A stretch of DNA of 56,083 nucleotides. Origin: Clostridia bacterium (GTDB taxonomy: Bacteria; Bacillota; Clostridia; Oscillospirales; QAKW01). Position 1 is the stretch's first letter, and the number at the start of each line of letters is the position of its first letter. The stretch spans positions 67,931 through 124,013 of the forward strand of contig JAFUNM010000046.1 of the NCBI GenBank assembly GCA_017482195.1. Reading direction: 5' to 3'. A program made the translations under genes and the position numbers. This document shows, piece by piece, positions 30,163-50,273 of the stretch. The notes beneath the pieces are model-generated. The model was not told where the DNA came from. It worked only from the letters and a program-made list of their open reading frames with translations, and did not search any database.

Positions 30163-30969
30163 TCACTCTATACTATTGTTCTCGATGGTCTCATCCACCA
30201 GTGAGCAAGCCGTATAGAGATAATCGGTGACGGTCATCTCCACGCCGTCTACGGTATGCAGCTCCTCCACCTCCTGGAGAGTAACGGAGATGCGCTTGCT
30301 GAACTTCGTGGAATCGGTGGTAACATCCACCTCACTGAGGCCATCGTCAATATAACAATCCACCAGAAGAGTATAAATCCCGGTAGCCTCATCGTATTTT
30401 ACATCGATCACATCCGGAACCAGAAAGGTTGTACTCATCCCGGAGGGAACCCGATAGCACCCGCTCAGCTTTTCATAGGTAAATGCTCCACAAACCTCTA
30501 CACTGCGGAAAGAGATCTCCCCCACATAATTGAAACTCTGACGGGCATATTTTTCCACATCCTCTTTCGGGATCAGGTAACTGCCGTCCTCCTGCAGAGC
30601 ATAAATACCCTGGCCGTTGACCTTAATGGCCTGCCAGATCCCATAGGAAACAAAATAATCGGTATTCAACTCCAGCGGATCGGTAAAGCTGGGAAAATCC
30701 TGCTTAACAAAATTATTGATATACAGCTCAAAAAATTCCTTAGAGCCAACCTCATAGCCGGAGGAACGGGCCTCTTCAAAAGGAGCATTAGCATCGATCA
30801 GATCGGGATCTACGCCTTCTTCATAGATCTTTTCGGGTTTGAACATATGATAGACCCGATTACCGCCCAAAAACAGCAAAAAGGCACAGCCGCCCAAAAA
30901 GGCCAAGCCAATACAAAAGGTCAGGATCTTATGGCCGTATTTACGGAAAAAGATTGCAACTTTATTCAT
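30163..30969 (-). CDS. Hypothetical membrane-anchored extracellular protein
   Basis: Basic N-terminus, one TM, acidic extracellular part; own promoter. Confidence 0.7.
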   Translation of the reverse strand: MNKVAIFFRKYGHKILTFCIGLAFLGGCAFLLFLGGNRVYHMFKPEKIYEEGVDPDLIDANAPFEEARSSGYEVGSKEFFELYINNFVKQDFPSFTDPLELNTDYFVSYGIWQAIKVNGQGIYALQEDGSYLIPKEDVEKYARQSFNYVGEISFRSVEVCGAFTYEKLSGCYRVPSGMSTTFLVPDVIDVKYDEATGIYTLLVDCYIDDGLSEVDVTTDSTKFSKRISVTLQEVEELHTVDGVEMTVTDYLYTACSLVDETIENNSIE

Positions 30970-30998
30970 AAATGCACTCCACATTAAAATTTGTTTTT

Positions 30999-33117: not shown

Positions 33118-33154
33118 AAAAAAATACGGAGTGTAAAACACTCCGTATTTTTTT
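33118..33154. terminator. Bidirectional intrinsic terminator
   Basis: AAAAAAATACGGAGTG-taaaa-CACTCCGTATTTTTTT between convergent genes. Confidence 0.88.
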
Positions 33155-33207: not shown

Positions 33208-34200
33208 TTACTGCACATACGGAATATAGAAAAGATCAATAACCAATTGCTTCAATGCGGCATCATCCATATAAAACTCTTCCAATTCCGACTCTTCATT
33301 GAAAGTCCCCTCCGGAATAAGAGTCTCGTTCATCTCATAGTCTGCCGTTTCGATGACCAAAGCAGTCATTTCTGATGCAGCCAATGAGGTGGCCATATAA
33401 TCGTAAAGTTCATTATACAAGGTATACGCTGATACGCCGCCCTCGGAAATACTGGTTCGAATCAGCTCGGTCAATCCATCCATATAATTGCCGATTCGTT
33501 CCAACCGGTTCCGGTTGGTAGGCTCATTCATTTCTTTTCTGGCACGAATATAATTATAGGCCTGAGTCCCGTTCAGCTTGATTCGCCGCCAACGGACAAG
33601 AGTGGGGTCCACAGCAGAAAAATCATCCTCGATCCGCACCTCTACCCCTCCGAAAAAGTCATTGAGGGTAGGAATTGCACCCATGTTTAAGAACAGATAC
33701 TTATCGATATCGATACCATAGAGCAAATTCTCTACTGCGCTGACGGTATTATTACAGCTGATACTGCCCCCGTTGCCATAGGCATGAGACAAGGCGATCT
33801 GAGCCGTCTGAGTTCCTTCTGCCAGATAATTTTCATTGAGCACAGTAAACTGCGTCATGGTATCACGGTCGATCTGGATCTTGTCAATGGTTTTGGTCTC
33901 ATTATTAATGACCAAAAGCAACAAAACATCAGCCTGGCCGCCGGAGCCGTTACCGCCCGAAAGATCGATCTTCCCGTCATTATCCACGCCGCCCAGCAGA
34001 ATCGTTTCCACCTTGGAGTTTTTAATATATTTCTCTCCGTTAAATTCAATATATTCCTGCTCCAGAGTCGTGTTCCACACATAGTCCTCCGGCGGCGCGG
34101 CAGTCTCATCCTCATCATTTCGCAAATACCAAATTCCGATTGCTAATGCCGCAATCAGAATCAAGAGGAACAGGTATTTTAACTTGCGTAAAATTTTCAT
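33208..34200 (-). CDS. LCP (LytR-CpsA-Psr) family glycopolymer transferase
   Basis: N-terminal TM, ILLGGVD, ADVLLLL, QIDRDT, HAYG, FGGVEV, YIRARK, R..R. Confidence 0.9.
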   Translation of the reverse strand: MKILRKLKYLFLLILIAALAIGIWYLRNDEDETAAPPEDYVWNTTLEQEYIEFNGEKYIKNSKVETILLGGVDNDGKIDLSGGNGSGGQADVLLLLVINNETKTIDKIQIDRDTMTQFTVLNENYLAEGTQTAQIALSHAYGNGGSISCNNTVSAVENLLYGIDIDKYLFLNMGAIPTLNDFFGGVEVRIEDDFSAVDPTLVRWRRIKLNGTQAYNYIRARKEMNEPTNRNRLERIGNYMDGLTELIRTSISEGGVSAYTLYNELYDYMATSLAASEMTALVIETADYEMNETLIPEGTFNEESELEEFYMDDAALKQLVIDLFYIPYVQ

Positions 34201-34203
34201 GAA

Positions 34204-34737
34204 TTACTCAGCTTTATTTCTAATAGATTTCTTCAGATAAACTCCGGTCAAAACACCGACTAAAAGGAGTACACCCGCGATAACGAAGGTGAGATCATCA
34301 CCGGTATCGGGAGATTTGACATCCTCATCCTCAGGCGAAGCTGCAGTATCTTTGACCTCAAAATCAGCAGTTGCTTCACCGTCTTCAAACACGATCGTGA
34401 CCGTATACTGACCGCTGCCCAAAAGACGCAGATATTCCTTCAGCAAAGTAACAATCGCCCGGGAAGGATCCACTTCATAATTCTTGGTGTCGATCAATAC
34501 ACCGTTTACCTTCACACCGGTGATCTTTTTCACATCGCCGTTGGCTTCAAAAGACAATTCTTTATCAGGATCAGCTTGATCCCATACATCGCCGTCGCCA
34601 TCCACGATCACATAGCCGGGCGCCGGATCCTCCTGCTCCAATTCAGGGCTGTCCTTGGCTTCACCTGCCGCAAAAGAAGTAAGGGTCATAGAGCCGATCA
34701 GCAAAAGCAGCATCAGGAGCGTTCCTATTCTTTTCAT
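34204..34737 (-). CDS. Small sortase-B-anchored protein with one X2/Ig-like domain
   Basis: Signal peptide; VKVNG.LID..NY...VTL.KEYL..L..G.YTVTIVFEDG.ATADF; sorting signal SPDTG + TM + KKSIRNK. Confidence 0.85.
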   Translation of the reverse strand: MKRIGTLLMLLLLIGSMTLTSFAAGEAKDSPELEQEDPAPGYVIVDGDGDVWDQADPDKELSFEANGDVKKITGVKVNGVLIDTKNYEVDPSRAIVTLLKEYLRLLGSGQYTVTIVFEDGEATADFEVKDTAASPEDEDVKSPDTGDDLTFVIAGVLLLVGVLTGVYLKKSIRNKAE

Positions 34738-34740
34738 TGT

Positions 34741-35478
34741 TTATTCCTCCGTTTCTTTCCAGATAACCAAATATCGTTTACTTTTAATATTATAATAGCA
34801 AGTTGATAAAATGACAAGCCGATCTTTTTCGGAAATTTCCGCACCGCCGGCAATCACCGCATTGAGATCCCTTACACTCAACAGCTCATTGACCAAAGCG
34901 CGATAGACCTCCGCGTCGGTATAATCGGCCTTATACAACAGGTGTCGGTCATCAAAGGGCACAGCCGCCACCAGCGTATAATGCTTTTCCTCCGTAGGAA
35001 GATAGATGGTCATTTGATTATGCGTGTTAAAATATTCCTGATCGGAATAATCTTTCAGATCGCCGAACATCCTGCCGGCGGTAATATTATGACCGTATAC
35101 AACGGTAATGGGATCCTCAAAGGTGAGGGTATTATAGTTTTCGGTAAAGATACTGCCATGATAAGCCCACTCCCCGGCAATGTCTCTTCTCAGATAGTAA
35201 GAATTATCCTCCGTCCGCTGAACGATGGGATAATCGACGCAGGTATCGGGGATCCGGATCCAGGCATAAATGTCTTTATTTTGATTTTGCAGGCCTGAAA
35301 AATCAACAGGGGAGACATACTCCGACGTTTGAGGAACGTCTGCAACCGGCGGAGCGCTCTCTTGAATCATCTCTTCTGCCTGCCGTCCGCTGAGCCATTT
35401 CCAGCCGAGTAGCGCCAGCAATAGCAGGATCAGCAGCAAAATCACCGCTGATAATACTCTTTTTTGTTTTATTTTCAT
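34741..35478 (-). CDS. srtB: Class B sortase
   Basis: N-terminal TM, WIRIPDT.VDYPIVQ, YGHN, LSTC catalytic Cys, RYLV Arg. Confidence 0.93.
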   Translation of the reverse strand: MKIKQKRVLSAVILLLILLLLALLGWKWLSGRQAEEMIQESAPPVADVPQTSEYVSPVDFSGLQNQNKDIYAWIRIPDTCVDYPIVQRTEDNSYYLRRDIAGEWAYHGSIFTENYNTLTFEDPITVVYGHNITAGRMFGDLKDYSDQEYFNTHNQMTIYLPTEEKHYTLVAAVPFDDRHLLYKADYTDAEVYRALVNELLSVRDLNAVIAGGAEISEKDRLVILSTCYYNIKSKRYLVIWKETEE

Positions 35479-36155
35479 TGCAACAAACCCTTCATCCGCT
35501 GTTGAATTACATCGTTTTGCACACCCAACCGGCGAATTGCTTTTTTCAAGGAACGGTAGGCGCGCTTGCCGCTGCCATGGACATCACTGCCCAAAGCATA
35601 CACCAGGCCGCTTTCCAGAATCTGACGAATATTTTGCTCTAACAATAAAGGGGTAAAGGCTTCTGCATTAAGCTGAAGCATATACTTTCGATCCAATAAT
35701 TTCTGTACGGTTTTCTTCGGATATCGGTTTACATGGGCGATCAGCACCCGCATCCGCTTATGGATCCGTTCGATCGTCTCAAACATTTCGGCCGTCATCG
35801 GCATATCGGGGATCTCCAGCAACAACAAATCGGTACCTTCGATACACAGCTTCTCCAGATTCTGCATTTTATCAAGGCCGATACAAAGCTGCACCTCTGC
35901 CCCTTTCAAAACGGTGATCCCGTAATCAGCCAGGTGCGGCTCCAACAATTGAAACCGCCGATCCCGCAGGCTCAGAAATTCTTCAACCTGATGGAGATGG
36001 GGATAAAAATGGGAAGTTGCTACGATCGTTCCGATTTCGGCCTCCCTGGCCGCCTCTAACTGCTGAAGAGAGGTTTCTAAAGAACTGCTGCCATGGTCAA
36101 CTCCGGGAAGGATATGAGCATGAAAATCCAGATACATCTGCTCTGTATTATTCAT
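35475..36155 (-). CDS. CpsB/CapC-like PHP tyrosine phosphatase
   Basis: DFHAHILPGVDHGS, ATSHFY, GAEV, IAHVNRY, GSDVH. Confidence 0.9.
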   Translation of the reverse strand: MNNTEQMYLDFHAHILPGVDHGSSSLETSLQQLEAAREAEIGTIVATSHFYPHLHQVEEFLSLRDRRFQLLEPHLADYGITVLKGAEVQLCIGLDKMQNLEKLCIEGTDLLLLEIPDMPMTAEMFETIERIHKRMRVLIAHVNRYPKKTVQKLLDRKYMLQLNAEAFTPLLLEQNIRQILESGLVYALGSDVHGSGKRAYRSLKKAIRRLGVQNDVIQQRMKGLLQ

Positions 36156-36172
36156 TTTCAACTCCCCTATCC

Positions 36173-36931
36173 TTATTTTTCGCTTTTACTTTCGCCGTAA
36201 CCGTAGCCATAGCCTCCGTAGTAGCCGTAGCGCTTATAATACTTATAACGGTGCTTATTATAATATTTTGATGTTTTATAGTAGTATCGCCCTGCATTGA
36301 AGGGAACATTATTCAAAATCGTGCCCAGGATAGTGGAATGGGAAGCTATGATCTGGTTCTTACTGTCCAAAACCTCCTGCACACTGACCACACCGTAGTT
36401 AATAACCAGGATGGTGCCGTCGCACTTTTGGGCAATATAAGCGCCGTCGATGACCGGTTGCACCGGCGGTGTATCCACCAACACCAGGTCATAACGCTTG
36501 CTCAATTCCTCCAGTAGCTCTTCAAATCGGGGCTTTTTTAAAAGATTGACCGGATTAGATACCGTTTTGCCGGCCAAAATAATGTCGGCATTTTCAATAT
36601 TGGTTTCATAAATAACCTCATCAATAGAGGCAATACCGGCCAGATAATGGGTCAGGCCCATCACATAATCGTCGCTCTCAACACCATAATCGGTGGCAAT
36701 ACGGGATTTTCGCAGGTCGCAGTCTACCAGAACCACCTTTTTGCCGTTGTTCGCGCAAGTCCGCAGCAGCTGCATGGAGACGAAGCTTTTTCCTTCATTT
36801 TCACGGGTACTGGTAATGCTGATCTTTTTAATATCATCACCGCAGAAATCCAGGTTGACGCTGATGGAGTTGAACTGCTCCGCACGGGTATACTCTAATT
36901 TATCAAAATTTTTAAATGTAATCTTTTTCAT
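36173..36931 (-). CDS. CpsD/CapB-like BY-kinase
   Basis: Walker A-like TSTRENEGKS, LVDCDLR, LVDTPP, C-terminal Tyr cluster. Confidence 0.93.
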   Translation of the reverse strand: MKKITFKNFDKLEYTRAEQFNSISVNLDFCGDDIKKISITSTRENEGKSFVSMQLLRTCANNGKKVVLVDCDLRKSRIATDYGVESDDYVMGLTHYLAGIASIDEVIYETNIENADIILAGKTVSNPVNLLKKPRFEELLEELSKRYDLVLVDTPPVQPVIDGAYIAQKCDGTILVINYGVVSVQEVLDSKNQIIASHSTILGTILNNVPFNAGRYYYKTSKYYNKHRYKYYKRYGYYGGYGYGYGESKSEK

Positions 36932-36943
36932 GATTCAAATCCC

Positions 36944-37696
36944 TCACGAAGCCTTTTCCGTTTTTTTGCTTTTTTTCTTTCTGCTGCGCTTTTTATCACC
37001 GGTCTGCGCCTTAGTGGGTGCTTCATTGACCATACCCAATACATTCAGCTGCAGCATAGAATCGATATCCTCGACGGATTTGATGGTATCATCGGAAACC
37101 GTTTTTAAATAAGAGAATACAAAGAAGGCCAGAGCGCCCAACACAAAGCTGACCATCGCATTCATCGTAGAATTGGGACTTACCTGTGCGCCTCTTGCCG
37201 CGGCATATTCCGTAATCTTCGGATGAGAGGATTCCATAATATCTGCCAATTTGGTGACGGAGACCTCCGCTAAAGCATTGGAGATATCGGCAGCCAGTTT
37301 ATCATCCTTGCAAACCGTCGTAATCTCAATCGCATGAGTACCCGTTGGATTAGTGACCGAGATCATATCACTGAGCATGGCATAGGTATACTCACTGCCC
37401 AGACCGATACGAAGCTTCATTTCGGTGATGAAGGGACGGCTGGTGATCAGGTAAATATAATCGTCCGTCAAGGAAGAACCGATTTGAATATCATCCAACT
37501 GCAGCACCGAATCAGAGGCGGAAGCAATATAAAGTGCAGACTTTGCAGAATACTTCGGATCAATAAACTTTTTGCTGAAAAGACCTACGCTGCCGCCCAA
37601 AACCAAGCCGGAGATGATCATGCCGATCAGACTTTTCTTTATAATATAAAACAACCCGGCAAGGCTTCTTTTAAAATCGGTTTCTTTCTGTATCAT
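36944..37696 (-). CDS. CpsC/Wzz-like polysaccharide co-polymerase
   Basis: Two TMs, PKYSA, SPN, DDTIKSVEDI...LNVLG. Confidence 0.9.
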   Translation of the reverse strand: MIQKETDFKRSLAGLFYIIKKSLIGMIISGLVLGGSVGLFSKKFIDPKYSAKSALYIASASDSVLQLDDIQIGSSLTDDYIYLITSRPFITEMKLRIGLGSEYTYAMLSDMISVTNPTGTHAIEITTVCKDDKLAADISNALAEVSVTKLADIMESSHPKITEYAAARGAQVSPNSTMNAMVSFVLGALAFFVFSYLKTVSDDTIKSVEDIDSMLQLNVLGMVNEAPTKAQTGDKKRSRKKKSKKTEKAS

Positions 37697-38958
37697 ACTA
37701 CTTCCCTTTCTAATTGAATATTTTCTGTTTCAAGCTGTTCTTTTTCAACAATTTCTGCCAATGCCATCAATAAGCCGAACTCTGCCCAGTAATAGAAGTA
37801 ACCGACCATGGTGGACATACAGATGGTTGAAGGCACAAAGATGATGAAAAACATCAAGGCATATTTCATTAACGAATCCTTACTGCCGCGATAAACGACG
37901 ATCATATTATAGATCATCTTTCCCAGCCAAAAGACAAACATAATGGCTGCAATAAAGCCGAATTCCTCAAAAACCGTCAAAACATAATTATGAGCCGCTC
38001 CTACCGCAGTGCTGTTCACTTTATACAGTATGTTAACGGTAGTGCCGTTTCCGGGGCCGACACCCATAAAATAGTACTTCCAGGAAACGCCGATGATGTT
38101 TTTCCACGCCTCCAGCCGAGGCTCATTGCCCGCCGAATAATTGATCAGTTCGTAAAAAACATTTGCCACAACAGAACCAAAAGCGATCAAAATCATAGCA
38201 ATGACAGCAATGATCAACCAGGCAGTTTTTCGCTTGCGGTCCATGATCACATACATCAGCAGTACAGCACAAAGCAGCAACAGAGCCGTATTACACCCGG
38301 TCAGCACGATCACAAATCCGCCAAATGCCATTAATAAAAGATCGATCAGCCCCTTAGCCTTCAGCTTGGTGGTTCCGATAAAACAAATCGGCATGGAAAG
38401 CGCCATAAAGATTGCCAAATTATTGATGTTCATCATAATAGAGGCCGGCATATATAAACCCAACACATTGGTCTGGCGGGTATAAAACTCATAAGCCAAA
38501 TTGAAATAATCACCGGTAAAGCTTTCATAAATACCGATACCGCCGATGATCAAATAGTTGATAATATAAATTCCTGCTGCAAAAATAATGTTTTCCCGTT
38601 TTTTTAGAAAAGACAGGCTGATCGCGATACAGGCAAAAGATGTGACCCAAGTAACCAGATCCACGATTACTGCTATCTGATTGTACGCCCAATACATCGT
38701 AAGCAGACCGGTCACCATCATTACAAGAAAGGTATAGAGAGTAAGATTCCGGAGACGAGGCCCCCTGAACGGAGAATTCTGCAAAACCGTAATCGGCTCC
38801 CCGATAATATAGGTCTTATACCATACCAGGATGACAAATAATAGGATTGCGATCCGCAAAGGAAACAGAGATCCGATAAAAGGAAACCGGATTCCGTCCA
38901 CGGCATTTCCCCAAACGGCAGAAGAAATGAAAAATAGAATAAACCATTTATCCCACAT
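37693..38958 (-). CDS. Wzy / O-antigen-ligase (Wzy_C) family membrane protein
   Basis: Polytopic; N.NNLA, R...W, GVGPG, AHNYVL..FEEFG. Confidence 0.82.
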   Translation of the reverse strand: MWDKWFILFFISSAVWGNAVDGIRFPFIGSLFPLRIAILLFVILVWYKTYIIGEPITVLQNSPFRGPRLRNLTLYTFLVMMVTGLLTMYWAYNQIAVIVDLVTWVTSFACIAISLSFLKKRENIIFAAGIYIINYLIIGGIGIYESFTGDYFNLAYEFYTRQTNVLGLYMPASIMMNINNLAIFMALSMPICFIGTTKLKAKGLIDLLLMAFGGFVIVLTGCNTALLLLCAVLLMYVIMDRKRKTAWLIIAVIAMILIAFGSVVANVFYELINYSAGNEPRLEAWKNIIGVSWKYYFMGVGPGNGTTVNILYKVNSTAVGAAHNYVLTVFEEFGFIAAIMFVFWLGKMIYNMIVVYRGSKDSLMKYALMFFIIFVPSTICMSTMVGYFYYWAEFGLLMALAEIVEKEQLETENIQLEREVV

Positions 38959-38979: not shown

Positions 38980-40131
38980 TTATTTTAAAACTTTTTTGTA
39001 AAGAGCTTCATAAGCCCTTGCGATGCTGTCTTCCGAATAGGCTGCAAGCGCCTTCTCCGAAATCCCTTTGCAATCAAATTGAGCATAGGTTTCGATCATC
39101 TTTTTCATAGCCTCTGCCAAAGAATGAGGATCGTCCGGCTCGGCCAGATAGCCGTTACTCTCATTGATCAATTCATAAGCACCGCCGTTCTCGGCGGTAA
39201 CCACCGGTCGCCCGGAGGCCATACTTTCAATATAAACCACGCCAAAGGTCTCGGTAACGCTGGCATGAACCAGTGCATTGGACTGCCCGAGCAGTTCATA
39301 AACTTCTTCTCTGGAAAGGTTTCCGTGAAACTTTAAGAAATCCTGTACATGCAGTTCTTTTGCCTGACATTCCAAGCTTTCCCGCAAAGGGCCGTCACCG
39401 GCAATATGGACCAACACCCGGATTCCCTGTTGTTTTAACTCTGCAACTGCGGATATAATATGATTCACTCGTTTTATTTCAGTGAGACGGGCAATCATCA
39501 CAAAGGTAAACACTTCATTCTCCGGCTTTGGCAGATATTGAAACACCGGGTTCAACACGTTTCCGATCATGATCGGCTTTTTCGCAAGATCATATTTACG
39601 ATAGATATAATCAGCCAAAAACTCTGTAACACAAACGGTGGCATCTGCCTCATCAAAAGTAGGTTTTACATAATCGTAGACCCCTTTTATATGAAGCCAG
39701 TCTTTAATGAAGGAAGAGGAATGCTCCGTCAGAACCACCGGGATATTATACTTTTTCCCTAAGCGGACCGCAGCGATACCCGAAGGATAAAAAGAGTGGG
39801 CGTGTAAAACGTCGATTTTTTGCTTTCTGAGCACCTTCTTCAGGAGCCGTTCTACCTTCATCTCATATAGTTTAATCGTCAAAGGAGCAGATCTTCCGGT
39901 CAAAAAAGCTCCGGTCTTATATTCATAGATCTCCACGCCGTTCTCTATATAATGCTTGATCCCGACATCCCGCTCAGTAGCAAGATAGATACGGGTCGGA
40001 ATGAGCTGAGCATTGATCAGCGTCACCTTATGGCCGGCCTTTGCCATGGCTACTGCCTGCTCCAAAAAGAAGGACCCATTGGTTCTGTTCGCTTTTAAAC
40101 GAAACCACGCAGGCAGAATCACAATATTCAT
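38980..40131 (-). CDS. GT4-like glycosyltransferase
   Basis: DVLHAH, TEH, ETFGVVYIESMASGRPVV. Confidence 0.92.
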   Translation of the reverse strand: MNIVILPAWFRLKANRTNGSFFLEQAVAMAKAGHKVTLINAQLIPTRIYLATERDVGIKHYIENGVEIYEYKTGAFLTGRSAPLTIKLYEMKVERLLKKVLRKQKIDVLHAHSFYPSGIAAVRLGKKYNIPVVLTEHSSSFIKDWLHIKGVYDYVKPTFDEADATVCVTEFLADYIYRKYDLAKKPIMIGNVLNPVFQYLPKPENEVFTFVMIARLTEIKRVNHIISAVAELKQQGIRVLVHIAGDGPLRESLECQAKELHVQDFLKFHGNLSREEVYELLGQSNALVHASVTETFGVVYIESMASGRPVVTAENGGAYELINESNGYLAEPDDPHSLAEAMKKMIETYAQFDCKGISEKALAAYSEDSIARAYEALYKKVLK

Positions 40132-40182
40132 CTTTCAACAATTTTCCTTTCATCAAACATCTGCGAAGCTCCCGCCCTAAAA

Positions 40183-41244
40183 TCAGTTCGGCACAGCGGA
40201 ACAAGAATTCCTCTCCGGATATTCGGCCCAGATGGTCTTTTTGTACTGTTCTTTATTATTCATTCCCTTAGACTGAGCCACTGCATTTACAGACAAGCTT
40301 TGATGTAGATCCTTATTATTGAGGACCTGCAAAATCTTTTCGGCAAGCACATCGTCACTCTCGCTTAAATAACCGGTTTCGTCATTCTTGACCAACGCTG
40401 TTAATCCATCTGCCGGAGTGCTGACAATGGGTACACCCAAGGCCTGTGCCTCCAGGGCACACATGGGGGTCCCCTCCCAACGGGAAGTCATCACCATGAC
40501 CTTCGCGCCCTTAAGCATCTTATGGGGATTTTTCCGAAAGCCCAGGAAATCCACATTTTTTTCCAGGTTCAGCTGCTGTGCAAGCTTTTTGGTTTCCTCC
40601 TCCAGTTCACCTACGCCTACTACAGCAAATTTGGTGCCCGGCCGCTGCTTTGCGACCTTAGAAAAAACCTCCATCAAGCGTTGCGGATTCTTTTGATAGG
40701 TCAGACGGCCGATATAGATCACATCATAAGGATACTGATTTGGATCCTCTTCCGCATTCCGACAGACGCTTTCCGTATCAATAATATTATAAAGCACCGT
40801 GCTTTTTTTGGCCAAAAGTGAGTGGAAACAATATCCCTTATAGGAACTATCGGACACCCAAAAGATATGCTTTGCCTTCCATCCTGCCAACAAATAGGCA
40901 ATGGATTTAGGCGAGACCCCCCTGGAATTGAAATTATTGTTGTGAATATGGGAGATCAACGGAATTCTTTTACAGACCAAGGCCGCATTGAAGCTTGCCC
41001 CCATATCATGAGCGTGGATCACATCCGGCTGAAATTCCTTAATGACCCGCCGCACCTCTTGGGAACTTACCTTCTCCATTGGAAAGAAACGAATGCCCTT
41101 ATCTGCCAACGCTTCACCAATGGGCCCATTTGGGCTGGCATAAGCCGATTCAGCATGCTCTTCGGCCATCATTTGAATAATCTGACAGGCCACATTCTCG
41201 GCCCCGGAATATTTATCGGAATTTAATAAATGAAGAATCTTCAT
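40183..41244 (-). CDS. GT4-like glycosyltransferase
   Basis: SGAE, PDVIHAHD, GRLTYQKN, SRWEGTPMCALEA. Confidence 0.92.
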   Translation of the reverse strand: MKILHLLNSDKYSGAENVACQIIQMMAEEHAESAYASPNGPIGEALADKGIRFFPMEKVSSQEVRRVIKEFQPDVIHAHDMGASFNAALVCKRIPLISHIHNNNFNSRGVSPKSIAYLLAGWKAKHIFWVSDSSYKGYCFHSLLAKKSTVLYNIIDTESVCRNAEEDPNQYPYDVIYIGRLTYQKNPQRLMEVFSKVAKQRPGTKFAVVGVGELEEETKKLAQQLNLEKNVDFLGFRKNPHKMLKGAKVMVMTSRWEGTPMCALEAQALGVPIVSTPADGLTALVKNDETGYLSESDDVLAEKILQVLNNKDLHQSLSVNAVAQSKGMNNKEQYKKTIWAEYPERNSCSAVPN

Positions 41245-42419
41245 TTCACAGACACCATTTTTCTTGTTTCATCTTTAGAAAAGCCATAAACTTCTCGCAT
41301 TTGTCCGGAAATATGAGAAACATCAAAGGCCCAGGCACTCTCCTGCACCTTGGCAGACAATTCTTTCCGCAGTTTCTCACTATTAATTAGTTTGGAAATC
41401 GCAGTTGCAAAAGCATTTACATCTTTATAGTGACATAAAAAACCATTTGTTTCATTGATCACATCCACATTTCCGCGAACAGTGGAAACAACTGCCGGCA
41501 ATCCGCTGGCAGCCGCTTCTGCCAAAGCAATCGGTAATCCTTCGCGGGTGGACGGATGACAAAACACATCTGCTATTCGATGCAAAGCAGCAATATCTTG
41601 CACATATCCAATTAAATGCACGCGTTCACTTAAACCAAGACGTTCGGCAAGTATGATCAAATCATCGCGGTTACCGCCGGTTCCCGCCACCACATAATGG
41701 AGATCCGGATCTTGAATCTTTGCCATAGCTTTAATAATCACACAATGATTTTTTAATGCATACAGTTCACCAACAGAAAGTAAAACCTTATCCGTCTCTT
41801 TTAGACCATATTTTTTCCTTTCTTCCATGCGATCTGCATTGCATTCTGCAAAGCGACGATAATCAATACCTACACTATTGGTATAGTAGATCTCCGGTAC
41901 TTTTTTGAATTTCCGTTTTGCTAAATTATAATCCTCTTTATTAATCGTCACCAAAACATCGGTAAAACGAGACAGGAACCATTCGATAGGATAGTAGATC
42001 ATCCAATCCTTTTTAGAGCCACCCTTATAAAAGAAGAAACCGTGAGCAGTATAAAGAACTTTTGTCCCTCTTTTACGGTATTTAGATGCCGCAAGGCGTA
42101 CAATAACACTAACTACCGGATTATGACAGTGGATCAGATCAAAATGGTGCTCTTTTAACAAATCCCTTAATACAACATAAGCGTCAATGTTGCACTTTTT
42201 AAAAGGACTTCGTTCAACCGGAAAATGATGCAGATACAGCCCTCTGCGTTCCCAGTCTTTAATACAAGCCTGGGTCTGCTCCGGTGAAATCTTACTGTTT
42301 TTCTCCATGTTACAAGCCAGATGAACTTCATAACCTTCTTCTAATAAAAGCTGAATATTACTTTCCAGAAACAGATGGATCATAGATACAGCATTTGCAA
42401 TGATCAACGCTTTCTTCAT
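41241..42419 (-). CDS. GT4-like glycosyltransferase
   Basis: DLIHCHNP, YTAHGF, INKEDY, PSTREGLPIALAEA; start ATG 42419 with GGAGG RBS. Confidence 0.92.
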   Translation of the reverse strand: MKKALIIANAVSMIHLFLESNIQLLLEEGYEVHLACNMEKNSKISPEQTQACIKDWERRGLYLHHFPVERSPFKKCNIDAYVVLRDLLKEHHFDLIHCHNPVVSVIVRLAASKYRKRGTKVLYTAHGFFFYKGGSKKDWMIYYPIEWFLSRFTDVLVTINKEDYNLAKRKFKKVPEIYYTNSVGIDYRRFAECNADRMEERKKYGLKETDKVLLSVGELYALKNHCVIIKAMAKIQDPDLHYVVAGTGGNRDDLIILAERLGLSERVHLIGYVQDIAALHRIADVFCHPSTREGLPIALAEAAASGLPAVVSTVRGNVDVINETNGFLCHYKDVNAFATAISKLINSEKLRKELSAKVQESAWAFDVSHISGQMREVYGFSKDETRKMVSVK

Positions 42420-42480
42420 AAAATGAATCCCTCCTGTGTTTTTAAAACACAAATTGGCTTCTGCCAACACATTTATTTAA

Positions 42481-42573: not shown

Positions 42574-42611
42574 AGCCATACTGCACCGCCTTCGGGCGGT
42601 GCAGTATGGCT
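42574..42611. terminator. Strong hairpin after the 2545-aa gene
   Basis: 17-bp stem AGCCATACTGCACCGCC-ttcg-GGCGGTGCAGTATGGCT; the T-tract follows only on the plus strand. Confidence 0.6.
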
Positions 42612-42635: not shown

Positions 42636-45600
42636 TTATCCTTCTACATAAACGGTGATATAAGCATCCTTTGTAACATCACCCAACGTGTAGTTCACAA
42701 CAAAGGTGTAATAACCGGCATCGGAGAGAGTCACCGTGTAGCCGTCCTTCGGTCCGAAGTGGCTGGTGTTGTTCAATCTCTTGGCAACAAAATCATTCCA
42801 ATTGGTAATGGTTACTTCTTCCGTTCCCATATAGCCGACATACATCTTGTTGACCTTGGTTCCGTTGTAGTTCAAAGCAGCAATATTCCCGTCTACTGCG
42901 ATCTTGGGTATACCAAGGGCCAGATCCTCTTCCTTTACTTCTACGGTGTAAATAGCATCCTTAGTGGCGCCGTTTACATTGTAGTTTATAACGAAACGCC
43001 AATATCCGGCCTGATCCAAATTATAAGTTTGACCATGATTGTCACCAAAGCAGGATGTAAAGGTATCTCCGGTATCGGCAATAAAGCCATTGAAATCCTT
43101 ATACTTGGTGTTCTCCGTTCCGATATAACCATAGTATACCTTTGCGGTATAGTCGTAGTTATCAGTCAGTACTGCCACATTGCTCAGTGCTTCATTGCTG
43201 ATGGAGGGAGCCTCGGCGGGAGTACCGGTATAAATTGTACAAATATAGTCTACCCACTGCCCGTCCTTCTCATAGTTAAGCAGGAACCGATAGTAACCCG
43301 GCTTATTCATGATATAGCCTTCATTGTCTTTTACATCATAATCGGGCAGATAAGTATCGCCAATCCGCTCTAAGAATTCATACCAGTTTACATACTTATA
43401 ATTTTCTTCACCGATATAGCCCCAATACAGCTTACGAACCTTCATGCCGTTCTTGTTCAGCCAAGCGACCTTACCATCCTCGCTGGCCTCTAGATACGGT
43501 CTGCCGTAGTTCTCATCAATGGAACCGGCCACCTGCAGGGTGTAATAAGCTTCTTTGGTTGCTCCCGCGGCATCCGTATAACGAACAACAAAGGTATAGT
43601 AACCGGGTTTGGTCATCGCATAGGTCTCACCGTTGATAGGAGCAAAGTCTGCCGTATAGGTATCCGTTGCGCTGACTGCGCTGTAGAATGCATTCCAGGT
43701 GGTACACTCCATGTACTCTGTGCCGATATAACCCCAATAAACACGGGTGGTCTCCAGCCCATTGGTATGCAGCACGCCCAGGTTCACATTCTCTTCCGAA
43801 ACCGCCATATAGGGCTTGTCGGTGGGATACTCAACGACCTCGGCGGTCACGTTGGCAGTAGCAGTACCGGCAACGGTATTCAAAGCCTCAACCGTTTCAC
43901 CGTTTACGGTGCAATCCTTTACGGTAGCGGTAACGGAGACCTCACCGGCGGCGGCTGCAGCGAAGGAAACGGTAGCGGAGGTGCCGGAAACGGAGATGAT
44001 CAGATTACCATTCTCGTCCACGCTGCCTGCAGTATTATCAGCAGAAGCAGTCATATTCAGGTTAGAGGTTTCCAGAACCACGGTGAAGCCTTCCACATTG
44101 GCATCAGCCTTCGCATTCAGGTTCAGGACGATGGTATCAGCAGTCTTGTATTCTGCTGCATCGAAGGTGATCTCAACGGGAGCGGTAATGCTCTCGGCAG
44201 AGCCTTCCACCACTTCCGTCCAGGTATTCACACCGCAGACTTCACAGACATAAACATTCTTCGCCAGTTCGAAGTAGGTAGCAGCCACATAATCGGGGGT
44301 TGCATCGGTACAGGGAACTGCATAATTATGAGTCTCATTGGTACAGCCTTCGACATCGCAGACCACATAGTGGTTTTTAGTGTCCTCGGGCTTGGTTTCA
44401 ATGTGATTGCCCTCATGAACAGCAGCGGTCAAAGCTACTGTATCGGTACCGCCGGAAACATTCAGAGGAGCCGTATAGGTCAGGTCGCCCAATACGACTT
44501 CTGCCACTTCGCCGGAGATGGAAGCCTCGCCGGCCTCATCGGTGATTACATCGAAAGTCAGGGTGAACGCGCCCTCGGTCAAAGCCATACCGTCAACAGA
44601 GTTGATGGTCACATTCAGCAGACCGGGGATGGCCGTTCCGGTGGCTTCATCCATGGCGGGAGCAACGGTGATCATTGCGGAAGCGGGGCCGGAAGCAGAT
44701 ACATAAGCCAGCTTCTCAGCATCAAAGGTCACGGTAGCGGTCATGGCGGCGATATCTGCTGCCAGAACCACATTCAGAGTAGCCGCAACCATCTCATCAG
44801 TGGTATAGGAATCGGCGTTGAACACCACATCCAATACAGTAGGTGCATTGGCGGCAGAAGCCTCATCCTCGGTCTCCCAGGTATTTACGCCGCAAACTTC
44901 GCAGACATAAACATTCTTACCCAGCACGAAGTAGGTGGGATCCACATGATCGGGATTCTCATCGGTACAGGGAACCGCATAGGTATGGCCCTCCACGGTA
45001 CAGCCTGCATTGTCACAAACCACATAGTGGTTTTCCTTATCGTCTTCTTTGGTCTCAATATGAGTACCCACATGCTCTGCAGCGTTGTAGGTGGTATCTG
45101 CGGTGTAAACGGCATCCCAATCGATGGTTACCGCCTCCCCGGCAGTATTCAGCCAGTTCTCACATCCAATCAAAGTCTTTGCGGTATCATCCGCTACCAG
45201 AACACCGTTGGCATCGGTAGCCAGAATGATTTTACCGTTCAGCAGATTGAAGGTTACGAAATATGCGCTCTGCTCTTCTGCAGCCTGAACAGGAGTACCG
45301 TCTGCCAGTGTCCAATCGGCCGTGGTATTGGCATTGTACATAGCCAGAGCGGTGTAGGTGCTCAAGGCAGTGATTTCTTCAACAGTCGTCTCACTGCCTT
45401 CATTTAACAACATTTCGGTATCTGCCATTACAGCGTCGGTTGTATTGACTGCGGCAGGATCATTGTTGTCCCAGATCATATGGCTGATAGGAACCAAAGC
45501 AGCCGTATCAGAAACATCTGTCCCGCGCAGGTTATTGACACTGTAAACATTCTTCACATTGAAGGTTCTTCCGGTACCTGCATAGAAGGTCGTCAAAACA

Positions 45601-48600
45601 GCACTTCTGTCTGCATCGTCATTCTGCACCAGATTGTTGGCCATCAGAATGTTTTCAAAGTTCAAAGTATAATCATACTCGTTCAAGTCCGCGATCAGCA
45701 GACCGCCGCCGCGGTTGGCAATATTATTGGACAGCAACCGGCTGTTTGCAACAACGATATCCTTAAAGCTTAAGGTATAACCGGGCCATCCCTTGTATTC
45801 GCCGACAAACAAGCCGTTTCCTTGTACTTCGCTGCCGGCCGCAGCAGCATCCACGGTACAATTGATCACACTGCAGTTCTCAAAGGTCAGATTCCCTTCC
45901 TTGCCGTTCTGGAAGCCCATGAAAAATGCATTATTTTTTACGGCAGACATCTTGGAATCGATTACATGCACATTCTCAACAATGGACGTTCCGCCGCCGG
46001 TCAGGACATTAACACCAAGGATCATACCGTAGTTACCGTCCGGAGTGGGAATATCGGCACTCTTAAAGGTAATATTCCGGATCTCATTGCCGGGAAGTAA
46101 AGTAATAAAGGAAGTAGTGGAGTTATAACCGATGATGTTATGATTCTCACCGTCCAGATTCACGCCGGCACTCAAATTAAAGCCGACGAACTGGCTGGCA
46201 AAGGTAGCAGATGCGGATGCATTATACTCGGTGATATTCAGATCACTAATAATGTAAAGGGTATCCCCTTCGGTGAATTTGGAAATATTAGCAGCCGCCC
46301 AGATCAACTCATCTACGGTAGAGATCGTGAATGCGGTAGCATCGGCAAAGTTCTCCACCTGACCGACAGGAACCTTCATGGCTGCCACCGCTTCAACGGT
46401 GGTGGTGCGGGGAGTAACCTCAACGGTCAAACCTTCGGCATTCACACCCAGAACCGTGCCCAAAGCAACTTCGATGGGCAGTTCAGCAGCAAGCGCATCT
46501 TCTGCAATGGTAAATTCCAGAGTGATGGAAACAGCGCCCGGAGTACCGTTCTGAGACAGTACATTTAGAGTCAGCGTACCGTCGTTGACACCCACGCTGC
46601 ACCAATCGGCATCTACGCCCACATAGGTCAGCTTGGCAGCATCATAAGTAACGGTGGCATCATAGCCAAGAATTCCGGCATCCTCATTCAGCGCGATGGT
46701 AACCTTTGCGGTCTCGCCTGCCACATAAGGGGAATCCTTATCAAAAGTCACGCTGAAGGGAGCGGGGCTGACAGAACTGTTATCTGCCACAGACCAATTT
46801 CCTTCACAGACTTCACAGGTATAACCGATCTCGGCGGGAGTATAGTAACCGGCAGCCACATCGTTCTCAGCCTTCGGTACTGCGGTACAGGTCACACCGG
46901 TAGCGGCATGCTCGCAGTCGCCCTCGGAACAAACGACATTATGGGTCCCGTCGTTATTGGATACATATTCCAGGGTATAGTCCAAAACATAGGTGGTATT
47001 TTCGGTATAAACCTCATCCCAGTTTACAGTCCAGGAGGATTCCGCACCTTCTACCTTCCAGGTCTCTTCTTCGATCAGAGCCTTGGTCGCATCATCTGCG
47101 ACGATCTTTCCGGTAGCGGCATCGGTACCCAGCTGAACGGTTTCATCATTCAGCTTGAAGGTTACAATATAAATGGTGACATCGCTGCCCACATATACGG
47201 GAACACCGTTTTCAGCAGCCCAGTCGTTGGTGGTGTTGGCATTCATTTTAGCCAGAGCAACATCGATGGGATAACTGCCGACTTCATAAACGGGGTTCTC
47301 AATGACTGCATCCGCCTTATTGCCGCTCAGCAGCACAGCAGGAGCCTCACCGTTTACTGCTGCATTGGAAACATACAGATCATTGACATTAATGGTCAGA
47401 GCATTGGTATCATTACGAGAGCCGGCAATAATTGCAGGACTGCAGGTAGAAGTTTCATTGCGGGTATAGTTGACCACAGCAACATTATCTACATTAAATG
47501 TAATCCCTCCGGAAACCTTGGGATAGAAATGGCCGACAAGGATACCGCCGTCGCGCTCTGCGTTGGTCGTATCGGAGTTTACGGTAATATCCTTAAAGAC
47601 GCAATTTTTAACAGTGACCGCACCGGCATCACCGATCGCACCGGTAATAATACCCAAGCCATTGGATTTCAGCCCTTCGCCATGGCTCAAGGTACAATCC
47701 ACAGCGCTGGAGTTTTCAATGATGATCGTTCTGGTTTTAGCATGGTTATAACCAAAGAAGATACCGCCGATACCGCTATTCACTGTCGAAATAACCTGCG
47801 CACCGCTGATATGAACATTGGACACGGTAAGCGTATTATTCTGAGCAGGACCGGTCAATCCGCTCAACACACCGGGATAGTTTGACTGAATCACCGGATC
47901 CACAATGTTTAGATTTTTAATATCGCCGGAAACATAGCCGAAAATACCGGAAACATTATCCGCGCGAGTGCCCTGATAGTAAGCGAAATTCTTAATGGTA
48001 TAGCCTTGGCCGTCGAAATCAGCCTTCAAAGAGGCTGCTACCGTCTGATTGGTACCGAAGGGTACATAAGTCTTCGCAAATGCCTCCTGAGCGGAAGTAT
48101 AGGTTGCGGTATCATAGACATAGTCGTTGATATCAATATCATTTGCCAGATAAAGGGTGTCACCCTCTGCAAAAGAAGCCCACTTTTGAGCCGCAAAGAT
48201 CAGCTCTTCAGGAGTAGAAATCGTGAACTCGGTAGCAACATCATTGGTCTCAACCTCCTTAACGGAAACCTTACCGCCGATGATGGCATTTGCCGTAACA
48301 GAAGGAGTCATAGGCGCCAGAGCACCCTCGTTTACATTTGAAACGGTCACCGTTACGGGAGCCTTTACACCGGCCGCTTCCGTTGCAACCGTGAAGGTCA
48401 AGGTCGTGCTGTCGGTCAGATCGGTCAACTCAATGGTCCCCTCAGCGCCTTCATAGGTCAGCTTGGCCGTATCGTAAGTAACCGTGGCATCGTAAGAAGT
48501 GATCCCGGCATCGTCAACCGTATCAACGGTAACGGTAACGGTATCGCCTGCCATATAAAGCTCCTGATCCACAGTCACACTGAAGGGAGCGGGGCTGGAG

Positions 48601-50273
48601 CCTTCGATCTTTTCCGTCCACTCGCCAAGGCAGACTTCGCAAGCATAGCCTTCTACACGGAGAGAATAATAAGTGGCGGGAACATCCTTATTGTCTACAT
48701 CGATTACGGTACAAGCAACACCGGTTGCGGCATGCTCGCAGTCCCCCTCGGAACAGCTAACATCATGCGTACCGTCTTCATTGCACACATAGGTCAAAGA
48801 GAAATCAGGAATATATACCGTATCAGCAGTTACCGCAGTAGTCCAAACGTCGGCAACACCTTCGCCGGTACTTTCAACTCTCCAGGACTCTGCATCAACG
48901 ACCGCCTTGGTCGTCTCGTCGATCACGGGAAGACCGGTAGCAGGATCGGTACCGACAATGACGGTCTCCTCCAACAGCTTGAAGGTTACTGCATAGGGAA
49001 CCGCATCGGCAGCAGGAGTGGGAACGCCGTTGGTATCCAGAGTCCAATCAAAATCGGTGTTCTGGTTCATGAGAGCCAGAGCCGCGTTGGCATTAAAGCC
49101 GTTCAGATTGTTCTCGTTTACAATCGATGCCGCGCCGTCTTCTACAACATTTACAACAGCCGGGTCGGTAACGCAATTGTTGACGGATTGGGTCGCCGCA
49201 CTGTTGGCAGCCACAGCAAACAGATCCGGCATCGCAACCGTAGCAGTCGTAACGTTCGCCTCGGCAGACATCATATTGCCCACCGCATAGATATGGTTTG
49301 CATTGATAAATGTATAGCTGGCATTTTTACCGTAGCTGGCGATAATGGAGGTACTGTCATGCGCATTCGTACCGTTGCTGCCGTAGTTAACAAATTTACA
49401 GTCAATGGCAGCAACATTTTCAAAATTACCGGTAACAGCCGTTCCGCTGCTCTGCCGTTTCAAGTCACCGACCAGGATACCGGCACCGTTGTTGTTACCA
49501 TAGGTATAGGTACCGGAAACCGTACTGTTATAAGCCACGCAATTGGTTAGATAAAAAGTGTTCGTATGGTCGATACGGCCGGCAAACAAACCGGTACCGG
49601 GAACGATAGCGACCGTATTATTTTGATTATAAGTATTGCTTACCGTGGTATTGATAACGGAGCTGTTTTTGATCGTAACCGTTGCTCCGCTCCCGCCATT
49701 CTGTAATGCAAAAATAGCAGCCGATCTTTGGTTGCCGGACTGGGTAACCGTGGAGTTGCGGACATGGATATTATCCATAACGACCGTCGCACCGGTACCG
49801 ACACGTTTCACAAGGATCGCACCCTCCAGATTCGTCAGGGTCAGATTGGCACCTTCAAAATTCAGGTTGGAAACATTACCGTTCAACGAAGTGATCATGG
49901 AATGGGTATCTGCATAGCCGATAATAGTATTCCCCAAACCGTTCAGATCAGCATTCAGAGTGCTGAAACCGACAAAAAGATCCTTAAACTTGGTTTCAGC
50001 CGTTTCGTTGTACGCAGTGATGTCCAGAGCGGATGCCAAATACAACGTATCATTGGCATCCCAGAAGCCTGCGTTAGACGCCGCATAGATCAAATCGTCA
50101 ACGCTGGTGATCTTGTAGTTCTGGGCACCGTCTTCCGCCGCGCCGATTTCCGCAACGGATTTCATGGAATCCAGATCCACCTCTTCCGCAGCCGCAGGCA
50201 ATACGATGCAGGTCAGCATGGAGATGACCATCATCACAGCCAGCAGAGCAGAAAGCCAATTTCTTCTGTTCAT
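42636..50273 (-). CDS. Giant secreted modular surface protein A (2545 aa): 3 beta-helix-like domains, 4 His/Cys fingers, 4 cohesin-like domains, 4 C-terminal Tyr-rich repeats
   Basis: Sec signal ending LPAAA-E; AGGAGG RBS; repeated FTIST..ELI.AA...GDTLYL..D.DI domain starts; CEVC motifs; ATVT(Y/F)D..KL.Y motifs. Confidence 0.9.
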   Translation of the reverse strand: MNRRNWLSALLAVMMVISMLTCIVLPAAAEEVDLDSMKSVAEIGAAEDGAQNYKITSVDDLIYAASNAGFWDANDTLYLASALDITAYNETAETKFKDLFVGFSTLNADLNGLGNTIIGYADTHSMITSLNGNVSNLNFEGANLTLTNLEGAILVKRVGTGATVVMDNIHVRNSTVTQSGNQRSAAIFALQNGGSGATVTIKNSSVINTTVSNTYNQNNTVAIVPGTGLFAGRIDHTNTFYLTNCVAYNSTVSGTYTYGNNNGAGILVGDLKRQSSGTAVTGNFENVAAIDCKFVNYGSNGTNAHDSTSIIASYGKNASYTFINANHIYAVGNMMSAEANVTTATVAMPDLFAVAANSAATQSVNNCVTDPAVVNVVEDGAASIVNENNLNGFNANAALALMNQNTDFDWTLDTNGVPTPAADAVPYAVTFKLLEETVIVGTDPATGLPVIDETTKAVVDAESWRVESTGEGVADVWTTAVTADTVYIPDFSLTYVCNEDGTHDVSCSEGDCEHAATGVACTVIDVDNKDVPATYYSLRVEGYACEVCLGEWTEKIEGSSPAPFSVTVDQELYMAGDTVTVTVDTVDDAGITSYDATVTYDTAKLTYEGAEGTIELTDLTDSTTLTFTVATEAAGVKAPVTVTVSNVNEGALAPMTPSVTANAIIGGKVSVKEVETNDVATEFTISTPEELIFAAQKWASFAEGDTLYLANDIDINDYVYDTATYTSAQEAFAKTYVPFGTNQTVAASLKADFDGQGYTIKNFAYYQGTRADNVSGIFGYVSGDIKNLNIVDPVIQSNYPGVLSGLTGPAQNNTLTVSNVHISGAQVISTVNSGIGGIFFGYNHAKTRTIIIENSSAVDCTLSHGEGLKSNGLGIITGAIGDAGAVTVKNCVFKDITVNSDTTNAERDGGILVGHFYPKVSGGITFNVDNVAVVNYTRNETSTCSPAIIAGSRNDTNALTINVNDLYVSNAAVNGEAPAVLLSGNKADAVIENPVYEVGSYPIDVALAKMNANTTNDWAAENGVPVYVGSDVTIYIVTFKLNDETVQLGTDAATGKIVADDATKALIEEETWKVEGAESSWTVNWDEVYTENTTYVLDYTLEYVSNNDGTHNVVCSEGDCEHAATGVTCTAVPKAENDVAAGYYTPAEIGYTCEVCEGNWSVADNSSVSPAPFSVTFDKDSPYVAGETAKVTIALNEDAGILGYDATVTYDAAKLTYVGVDADWCSVGVNDGTLTLNVLSQNGTPGAVSITLEFTIAEDALAAELPIEVALGTVLGVNAEGLTVEVTPRTTTVEAVAAMKVPVGQVENFADATAFTISTVDELIWAAANISKFTEGDTLYIISDLNITEYNASASATFASQFVGFNLSAGVNLDGENHNIIGYNSTTSFITLLPGNEIRNITFKSADIPTPDGNYGMILGVNVLTGGGTSIVENVHVIDSKMSAVKNNAFFMGFQNGKEGNLTFENCSVINCTVDAAAAGSEVQGNGLFVGEYKGWPGYTLSFKDIVVANSRLLSNNIANRGGGLLIADLNEYDYTLNFENILMANNLVQNDDADRSAVLTTFYAGTGRTFNVKNVYSVNNLRGTDVSDTAALVPISHMIWDNNDPAAVNTTDAVMADTEMLLNEGSETTVEEITALSTYTALAMYNANTTADWTLADGTPVQAAEEQSAYFVTFNLLNGKIILATDANGVLVADDTAKTLIGCENWLNTAGEAVTIDWDAVYTADTTYNAAEHVGTHIETKEDDKENHYVVCDNAGCTVEGHTYAVPCTDENPDHVDPTYFVLGKNVYVCEVCGVNTWETEDEASAANAPTVLDVVFNADSYTTDEMVAATLNVVLAADIAAMTATVTFDAEKLAYVSASGPASAMITVAPAMDEATGTAIPGLLNVTINSVDGMALTEGAFTLTFDVITDEAGEASISGEVAEVVLGDLTYTAPLNVSGGTDTVALTAAVHEGNHIETKPEDTKNHYVVCDVEGCTNETHNYAVPCTDATPDYVAATYFELAKNVYVCEVCGVNTWTEVVEGSAESITAPVEITFDAAEYKTADTIVLNLNAKADANVEGFTVVLETSNLNMTASADNTAGSVDENGNLIISVSGTSATVSFAAAAAGEVSVTATVKDCTVNGETVEALNTVAGTATANVTAEVVEYPTDKPYMAVSEENVNLGVLHTNGLETTRVYWGYIGTEYMECTTWNAFYSAVSATDTYTADFAPINGETYAMTKPGYYTFVVRYTDAAGATKEAYYTLQVAGSIDENYGRPYLEASEDGKVAWLNKNGMKVRKLYWGYIGEENYKYVNWYEFLERIGDTYLPDYDVKDNEGYIMNKPGYYRFLLNYEKDGQWVDYICTIYTGTPAEAPSISNEALSNVAVLTDNYDYTAKVYYGYIGTENTKYKDFNGFIADTGDTFTSCFGDNHGQTYNLDQAGYWRFVINYNVNGATKDAIYTVEVKEEDLALGIPKIAVDGNIAALNYNGTKVNKMYVGYMGTEEVTITNWNDFVAKRLNNTSHFGPKDGYTVTLSDAGYYTFVVNYTLGDVTKDAYITVYVEG
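42639..43817 (-). repeat. Four tandem ~90-105-aa repeats, consensus (K/R)(V/L/M)Y(W/Y/V)GY(I/M)G.E...W..F...GY(Y/W).F(V/L)(V/I/L).Y
   Basis: Read from the translation; approximate units 43503-43817, 43209-43502, 42912-43208, 42639-42911. Confidence 0.9.

Follow-up and report, generated by a model that had tools for sequence, protein, structure and literature searches.

Why should an operon that looks equipped to build a capsule end in genes for a sortase, a small sortase substrate and an LCP enzyme? Two routes of capsule attachment are known, direct linkage to peptidoglycan and linkage to lipid. In the window, that is the whole stretch of Clostridia bacterium DNA analysed here (56,083 nucleotides), the srtB–small gene–LCP trio lies at the 3' end of a capsule-type operon, with all three genes on the minus strand. 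We consider it rather probable that the LCP enzyme transfers the polymer to a serine (S30) of the small protein, hereafter the carrier, and that SrtB anchors the loaded carrier. The operon comprises the following features, given in gene order:

38980..42470, minus strand: three genes for GT4 glycosyltransferases, first in the operon
37693..38958, minus strand: Wzy_C / O-antigen ligase-family membrane protein, probable polymerase
36944..37696, minus strand: CpsC-like chain-length protein (profile matches below curated cut-offs)
36173..36931, minus strand: CpsD/CapB tyrosine kinase (TIGR01007 above cut-off)
35475..36161, minus strand: CpsB/CapC phosphatase
34741..35478, minus strand: class B sortase SrtB, 245 aa (TIGR03064 and H130/C227/R235)
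34204..34737, minus strand: small protein of the sortase-substrate type, 177 aa, the proposed carrier of the glycan
33208..34200, minus strand: LCP-family phosphotransferase, 330 aa, member of a carrier-linked clade
33118..33154, minus strand: terminator-like 17-bp hairpin closing the operon, between the LCP gene and a convergent U32 gene

Hairpins flank this unit on both sides (42574-42611 and 33118-33154). The tight spacing described in a sequence-only reading of the locus was confirmed to the base: cpsB overlaps srtB by 4 bp, and gaps of 3 bp separate srtB from the small gene and the small gene from the LCP gene. A promoter-like site (11/12) inside srtB, at 34817-34789, was set aside, being degraded in both close relatives; the search that gave it returned 25 such sites versus 19.3 +/- 5.5 in shuffles, that is, no enrichment. 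The operon carries features of a Wzx/Wzy-dependent capsule locus, namely Wzy, CpsB/C/D and glycosyltransferases. Neither a priming phosphoglycosyl transferase nor a flippase lies within it, which counts against our proposal; candidates are encoded on other contigs (PF02397 on C22; PF01943 on C22 and C1) of the source genome, which is 62% complete and in which the window forms the end of contig C38.

SrtB scored above the curated cut-off of TIGR03064 (155.2 versus 153.75 bits) and carries the His/Cys/Arg triad (H130, C227, R235). It is the only sortase found in the 62% complete genome, where credible SPxTG signals occur in three proteins (4 raw matches), and its gene adjacency suggests that it cleaves the SPDTG protein and anchors it in the wall. 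The layout first described for the 177-aa protein holds, with a predicted signal peptide, a CBM_X2 domain, SPDTG, a hydrophobic stretch and a basic tail:

34669..34737, minus strand: carrier signal peptide, residues 1-23 (predicted by a simple rule-based predictor)
34648..34650, minus strand: Ser30 within A-K-D-S-P, proposed acceptor
34369..34587, minus strand: CBM_X2 / Ig-like domain, residues 51-123 (31.5 bits versus a cut-off of 28.9)
34300..34314, minus strand: SPDTG sorting motif, residues 142-146, with a hydrophobic helix and a basic tail (KK..R.K) behind it

One correction concerns the serines. The ectodomain is not rich in Ser and Thr (6 Ser and 7 Thr in residues 25-142), and the conserved serine is S30, directly behind the signal peptide, rather than a residue of the acidic linker to which attention had been drawn. 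A structure predicted from the carrier sequence alone was of low quality (pLDDT 65), and a fold search with it returned nothing at E<=0.001. Used as a query in 60 relatives, the small protein retrieved larger proteins with an X2 domain but not the true positional partners, which were identified by gene order.

The conservation of the trio was followed from the LCP enzyme. The window LCP matched PF03816 with 63.6 bits (cut-off 24.6) and fell slightly short of the TIGR00350 cut-off (61.6 versus 62.3). Its model has the LCP fold (pLDDT 86.8) and aligned with Cps2A (2xxq) at Z 24.7 and an rmsd of 3.1 over 244 aligned residues. A search profile made from 18 relatives gave matches at E<=1e-45 in 43/301 genomes of the order and in 22/399 genomes of the class, one of which (G373) turned out to contain an ordinary LCP; in a phylum-wide sample of 301 genomes, only three matches fell below 1e-80, the next best being 2e-42. 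Flanks were retrieved at 76 clade loci, which are spread over 71 genomes and 20 families. In a quick tree, the 77 clade LCPs (these 76 and that of the window) occupied one side of a branch with 100% SH-aLRT support, with 40 other LCPs on the opposite side, including two further, ordinary LCPs encoded elsewhere in the window's genome. Scans of named-genome contigs yielded 0 relatives among 109 pattern matches with the window LCP and 2 loci with a Lachnospiraceae LCP; an LCP alignment tried as the query proved too diverse for use.

A small signal-peptide partner was encoded close to the clade LCP in 72 of the 76 loci; the four loci without one comprise two at contig edges and two true orphan LCPs. 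Under a strict rule demanding a signal peptide, a sorting motif and a membrane anchor within 1.5 kb, partners were present at 49/76 clade loci versus 0/38 ordinary LCP loci. The coupling of LCP and partner exceeds chance. Around this pair, srtB lay within 3.5 kb of the clade LCP in 31/76 loci and was not adjacent in 45/76, cpsB/C/D lay within 5 kb in 53/76 with none in 23/76, and gene order differed between loci. A survey of the trio's conservation had been proposed in the sequence-only reading as its own check, and these counts do not refute it. The frequent distance of srtB, the loci with no cps gene nearby and the two orphan LCPs nevertheless count against a carrier role of the partner. In a reverse search of 60 relatives with the main carrier family, all 23 strong matches were located in such loci (21 beside a clade LCP and 2 behind cpsD-cpsB at a contig end), many of them being sequences already in the query alignment. 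The trio of srtB, small gene and LCP gene is thus a real, conserved module that closes the capsule-type operon. That three cell-envelope genes stand together merely by accident, as their varying order might suggest, is extremely improbable and largely refuted by the linkage across 20 families versus 0/38 controls, together with the published genetics considered below.

The partner is conserved in its position and its ends, not in its middle. Among 70 scored partners, 9 carry a membrane anchor but show no clear sorting motif, and another 5 lack an anchor altogether, which also counts against a carrier role. At least four architectures occur among the partners, one being the absence of a body: one large family, an InlB-like group, the X2 of the window, a few singletons and three domainless proteins of 80-82 aa. 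BLAST suggested 15 unrelated carrier bodies, an overestimate, since profile searches joined most of them into the large family, whose 59 members include the M. gnavus protein and gave no Pfam or NCBIfam match above cut-off except for the anchor. Since 58 of the 72 partners belong to this one family, the partner counts are not independent.

The two closest relatives of the window locus (G023 and G011) have such domainless partners. Their LCPs are 60-61% identical to the window LCP, and between srtB and LCP they encode carriers of 81-82 aa that lack a folded domain, share A-K-D-S-P and SPDTG with the window carrier and contain several additional Ser residues. With 18 synonymous versus 4 non-synonymous codon changes, these micro-carriers evolve as coding sequence. 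The X2 domain of the window carrier, absent from other carriers, may be a mere spacer.

These architectures bear on a different reading, voiced by a reviewer in the peer-review file of PMC13121745, according to which the LCP still ligates the polymer to peptidoglycan, while the small protein would help as an accessory, positioning or activating Cps/LCP or holding the polymer non-covalently. Partners without any anchor, the two LCPs without a partner and the CBM_X2 domain of the window partner would all suit such an accessory. In contrast, the 80-82-aa partners leave only about 25-30 mature residues and no domain, and an N-terminal Ser motif is the only feature common to all body types. Taken together with the enzyme residues discussed further below, we regard this reading as unlikely.

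Every one of the 72 scored partners (71 full-length proteins and that of the window, with one truncated partner excluded) has a Ser within the first 12 residues past the cleavage site, as predicted by a simple in-house rule and with kin among the partners that are not independent. In 58 of them, this Ser is next to a Pro (SP or PS). Plain Ser is also frequent in control proteins (22/40 and 25/38), so that it is the dipeptide that carries the signal: SP/PS was found in 1/40 secreted proteins of the window's genome, in 1/38 secreted proteins from the fetched loci (those left after removing 38 carrier, LCP and sortase homologues) and in 30/720 internal windows. Resolved by architecture, the dipeptide is present in 3/3 bodiless partners, 1/1 X2, 3/4 InlB-like proteins, 3/3 singletons and 48/58 members of the large family, and in 0/3 of a group whose sortase lacks catalytic motifs. 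The 14 partners without Pro count against a carrier role. The invariant Ser in one of our alignments (A4) is not evidence, because that alignment was anchored on Ser; when 45 family members were aligned without such an anchor, the column of the N-terminal Ser was conserved in 37/45 and ranked among the six most conserved.

The same counts speak to a third reading, in which the LCP does glycosylate the small protein, at another residue, following a priming step by a different enzyme, or using a polymer not made by the operon. It draws on A. oris, where LcpA seemingly acts on GspA that is already modified (PMC6381275), and on the 23/76 loci without a cps gene within 5 kb, the 14/72 partners without Pro and the further Ser residues of the micro-carriers. 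Against it stand a Ser in the first 12 residues of 72/72 partners, the 37/45 Ser column and the M. gnavus genetics, which links the LCP to the capsule (PMC13121745). We therefore hold this third reading to be distinctly unlikely, and S30 remains the proposed acceptor.

On the enzyme side, the residues of catalysis and those of the presumed acceptor site behave differently. D73, D91, R112, R221 and R232 (the Mg-binding Asp pair and the pyrophosphate-binding Arg) are invariant in both the clade (77/77) and the other LCPs (40/40). At Q89 of the window LCP, by contrast, R is found in 3/77 clade versus 35/40 other LCPs; the corresponding counts are 0/77 versus 35/40 for K at Q134, 0/77 versus 36/40 for N at A136 and 4/77 versus 37/40 for D at N229. 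Potential peptidoglycan-binding sites of S. aureus LcpA have been placed near R99, K135, N137 and D224 (review PMC7831098, as far as consulted), a role that is a structure-based proposal, and the consulted part of a preprint names a similar residue set for pneumococcal Psr (10.1101/2024.10.21.619401). Counted along the 6uex alignment, the S. aureus residues fall in the R-x-D, K-I-N and G-D-F-G-R motifs, that is, at the four swapped positions. The clade LCP thus looks retuned on its acceptor side, judging from sequence comparison, with about a dozen further positions also distinguishing the clade from other LCPs. Single swaps at the four positions exist in some ordinary LCPs, and A. oris LcpA still has the first Arg; both would weigh against reading the swaps as the mark of a protein acceptor.

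Ordinary LCP ligases (Cps2A, TagT/U/V and S. aureus LcpA) share with the window LCP the fold (Z 21-25), the catalytic Asp and Arg residues and the place in a cps operon; they differ from it in keeping the four proposed peptidoglycan-binding residues and in lacking a small sortase-type partner (0/38). Continued ligation to peptidoglycan would be normal LCP chemistry, for which all five catalytic residues are intact, and it would also account for the knockout phenotypes described next. Opposed to it are the clade-wide replacement of those four residues and the two ordinary LCPs elsewhere in the genome. Whether a dedicated LCP clade now loads a short N-terminal Ser(-Pro) tag in place of peptidoglycan, so that many gut Clostridia, M. 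gnavus among them, would have capsules that are giant glycoproteins anchored by dedicated class B sortases, appears to us evenly balanced.

Genetic evidence comes from M. gnavus. According to the parts of PMC13121745 consulted, deletion of srtB4 abolishes the capsule and can be complemented, and disruption of the LCP gene adjacent to srtB4 likewise abolishes it. Using a primer from that paper, we found the cluster in 48 metagenome stretches; on one of them, the LCP reached 320 bits with the clade profile and shows all four residue swaps, and the start of the SPQTG protein reads A-P-S-T. Like the window, the srtB4 cluster (RGna_12030-12060) thus combines a clade LCP, adjoining cpsB/C/D and a small SPxTG protein, in M. 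gnavus with an N-terminal Pro-Ser. Its gene order is different, the LCP and carrier genes are separated by an additional membrane-protein gene, and instead of X2 the carrier has the widespread unnamed domain as its body. The sortases fall on the same side of their tree, in which a 99% branch splits 27/33 LCP-linked SrtBs, including the window SrtB and M. gnavus SrtB4, from 13/13 unlinked SrtBs; the remaining six LCP-linked SrtBs cluster with the unlinked type. A Butyrivibrio fibrisolvens plasmid carries the arrangement cpsC-srtB-LCP-SPRTG protein-cpsD, with a partner whose start has a Ser without Pro and an LCP that keeps the first Arg.

In the sections of PMC13121745 that we covered, the authors treat the LCP as a peptidoglycan-attachment enzyme and offer no mechanism for the sortase, whose contribution to the capsule 'remains unclear' in their words in the peer-review file; the covered part of the preprint version adds nothing further on the sortase substrate. 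The requirement for a sortase in M. gnavus capsule display would make sense if the polymer were linked to the small protein and not to the wall itself. The main evidence against a carrier role comes from the same peer-review file, in which RGna_12050 with a FLAG or fluorescent tag went undetected in the wall and showed no dependence on SrtB4; the authors concede there that the detection may have been unsuitable, and the negative outcome could be due to a tag placed at the mature N-terminus or to a glycan of capsule size. A disruptant of RGna_12050 exists, for which the paper reports a growth curve. The M. gnavus capsule is released by heat at 95 C (PMC13121745, in the part consulted), a behaviour compatible with the competing models alike. 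The idea put forward in the sequence-only reading, that the LCP loads polymer onto a small carrier which SrtB then anchors, hence gained comparative and genetic support from the conserved pairing, the swapped residues and the M. gnavus knockouts.

The chemistry of the proposed transfer is modelled on A. oris, where, as far as PMC6381275 was covered, LcpA glycosylates the sortase substrate GspA, and a phospho-glycan transfer to GspA followed by sorting has been proposed. In the window module, the product of the GT4, Wzy and CpsBCD proteins would be the polymer, carried on undecaprenyl-PP. The LCP would move this lipid-carried polymer as a sugar-phosphate onto S30, giving a sugar-phosphate-Ser phosphodiester, and SrtB would then cut SPDTG and join T145 of the loaded carrier to peptidoglycan. 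Loading would precede sorting, as proposed for GspA.

As in the clade loci (72/76), the LCP gene of A. oris is linked to a sortase-substrate gene, and we propose that the window module works like the LcpA-GspA-SrtA pathway without belonging to it by orthology. A. oris is of a different phylum and uses the housekeeping class A sortase SrtA, whereas the window encodes a class B sortase. Its LcpA contains a disulfide that the window LCP, with one Cys only, cannot form, retains Arg where the window LCP has Q89, and, of the 18 solved LCPs matching the clade profile, gave the weakest score (E 0.00039). No tie of the A. oris pathway to a CpsBCD/Wzy locus appears in the parts of PMC6381275 covered. 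Capsule-type loci of the present kind also invite comparison with PEP-CTERM/exosortase systems. These encode a sorting enzyme and its substrates inside polysaccharide loci, yet they belong to the Gram-negative envelope, use unrelated enzymes and have no LCP.

What is likely new here is a proposed mechanism for the M. gnavus-type module, whose published genetics left the role of the sortase unclear; the literature searched, with most subscription journals outside its scope, contained no paper stating a carrier mechanism for Clostridia. If the proposal is true, these Clostridia would have a third route of capsule attachment, protein glycosylation by LCP enzymes would no longer be an oddity of A. 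oris, and the Ser(-Pro) tag, on any body or none, would be a portable signal for polysaccharide-to-protein ligation in Gram-positives. A short tag that accepts Wzy polymers could then serve glycoconjugate engineering. In M. gnavus, the capsule determines success in competitive gut colonisation and is inversely associated with inflammation (PMC13121745, in the part covered). The carrier, its candidate acceptor Ser and four enzyme residues are now named, and M. gnavus has genetic tools.

Finally, the giant secreted proteins encoded upstream, which have no sorting signals, had led the sequence-only reading to an alternative in which the small protein is their wall-anchored dock. The giants are adjacent to the operon, one of them has cohesin-like matches, and the four-repeat module at their C-termini is present in the three genomes whose LCPs make up the subclade of the window LCP. 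These three genomes are close kin, however, and in two of them, the closest relatives with an 81-82-aa partner, the partner lacks a folded domain. The module was detected in 3/61 genomes, far more rarely than the LCP–partner pair, a giant homologue was present in 1/87 fetched loci, and a terminator-like hairpin lies between the giants and the operon. Docking of the giants is thus poorly supported and, in our estimation, very improbable. An Atlas search on the giants' repeats gave weak Ig-like leads only. The C-terminal module of the giants might conceivably bind the polymer rather than the small protein.

Two giant proteins are encoded upstream of the operon carrying the sortase gene srtB, the gene of the small carrier (the proposed glycan acceptor) and the LCP gene:

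window 42636-50273, minus strand: giant secreted-type protein, 2545 aa
window 50567-56083, minus strand: second giant secreted-type protein, at least 1838 aa, gene running off the contig end

The C-terminal part of both giants consists of four repeats of about 100 aa each, for which no family match was obtained. Among 61 genomes, this four-repeat module was found only in the genome under study (G000) and its two closest relatives, G011 and G023, the latter containing 16 matches. The module may serve as a non-covalent anchor binding the wall or the polysaccharide. In both relatives, the region downstream of the LCP gene holds a gene resembling that of a membrane-anchored protein, itself without match in Pfam and NCBIfam:

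window 30163-30984, minus strand: membrane-anchored protein, 273 aa

The relatives' carriers are short; their membrane helix contains an Asp, and their tail is acidic instead of basic:

L026:6666-6911: 81-82-aa carrier gene
L027:10321-10569: 81-82-aa carrier gene

A promoter-like site lies 52 bp upstream of the carrier gene and is degraded in close relatives:

window 34789-34817, minus strand: sigma70-like site, 11/12 match, within the srtB 3' end

For M. gnavus, a published study reports a promoter predicted ahead of the carrier gene (PMC13121745).

Elsewhere in the LCP clade, the module itself varies. At three loci of one genus in family f29 (L143, L144, L145), the His and Cys motifs are missing from the sortase adjoining the LCP, and the partner has neither membrane anchor nor Ser-Pro motif, possibly representing a decayed or secreted-polymer version of the module. 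Partners at L030, L043, L138, L141, L182, L192 and L198 retain a membrane anchor without a clear sorting motif, and no sortase was found in the fetched flanks; here, the polymer might be membrane-tethered. The LCP at L138 has the same sequence as a protein assigned by name to Acetobacterium. At L149 and L152, partner, sortase and cps gene are all absent within ~7 kb.

Finally, the genome contains a second polysaccharide locus, which may supply the priming step absent from the srtB/LCP operon:

G000 C22:71213-74842: second polysaccharide locus, running off the contig end and starting with the only priming transferase found in the genome
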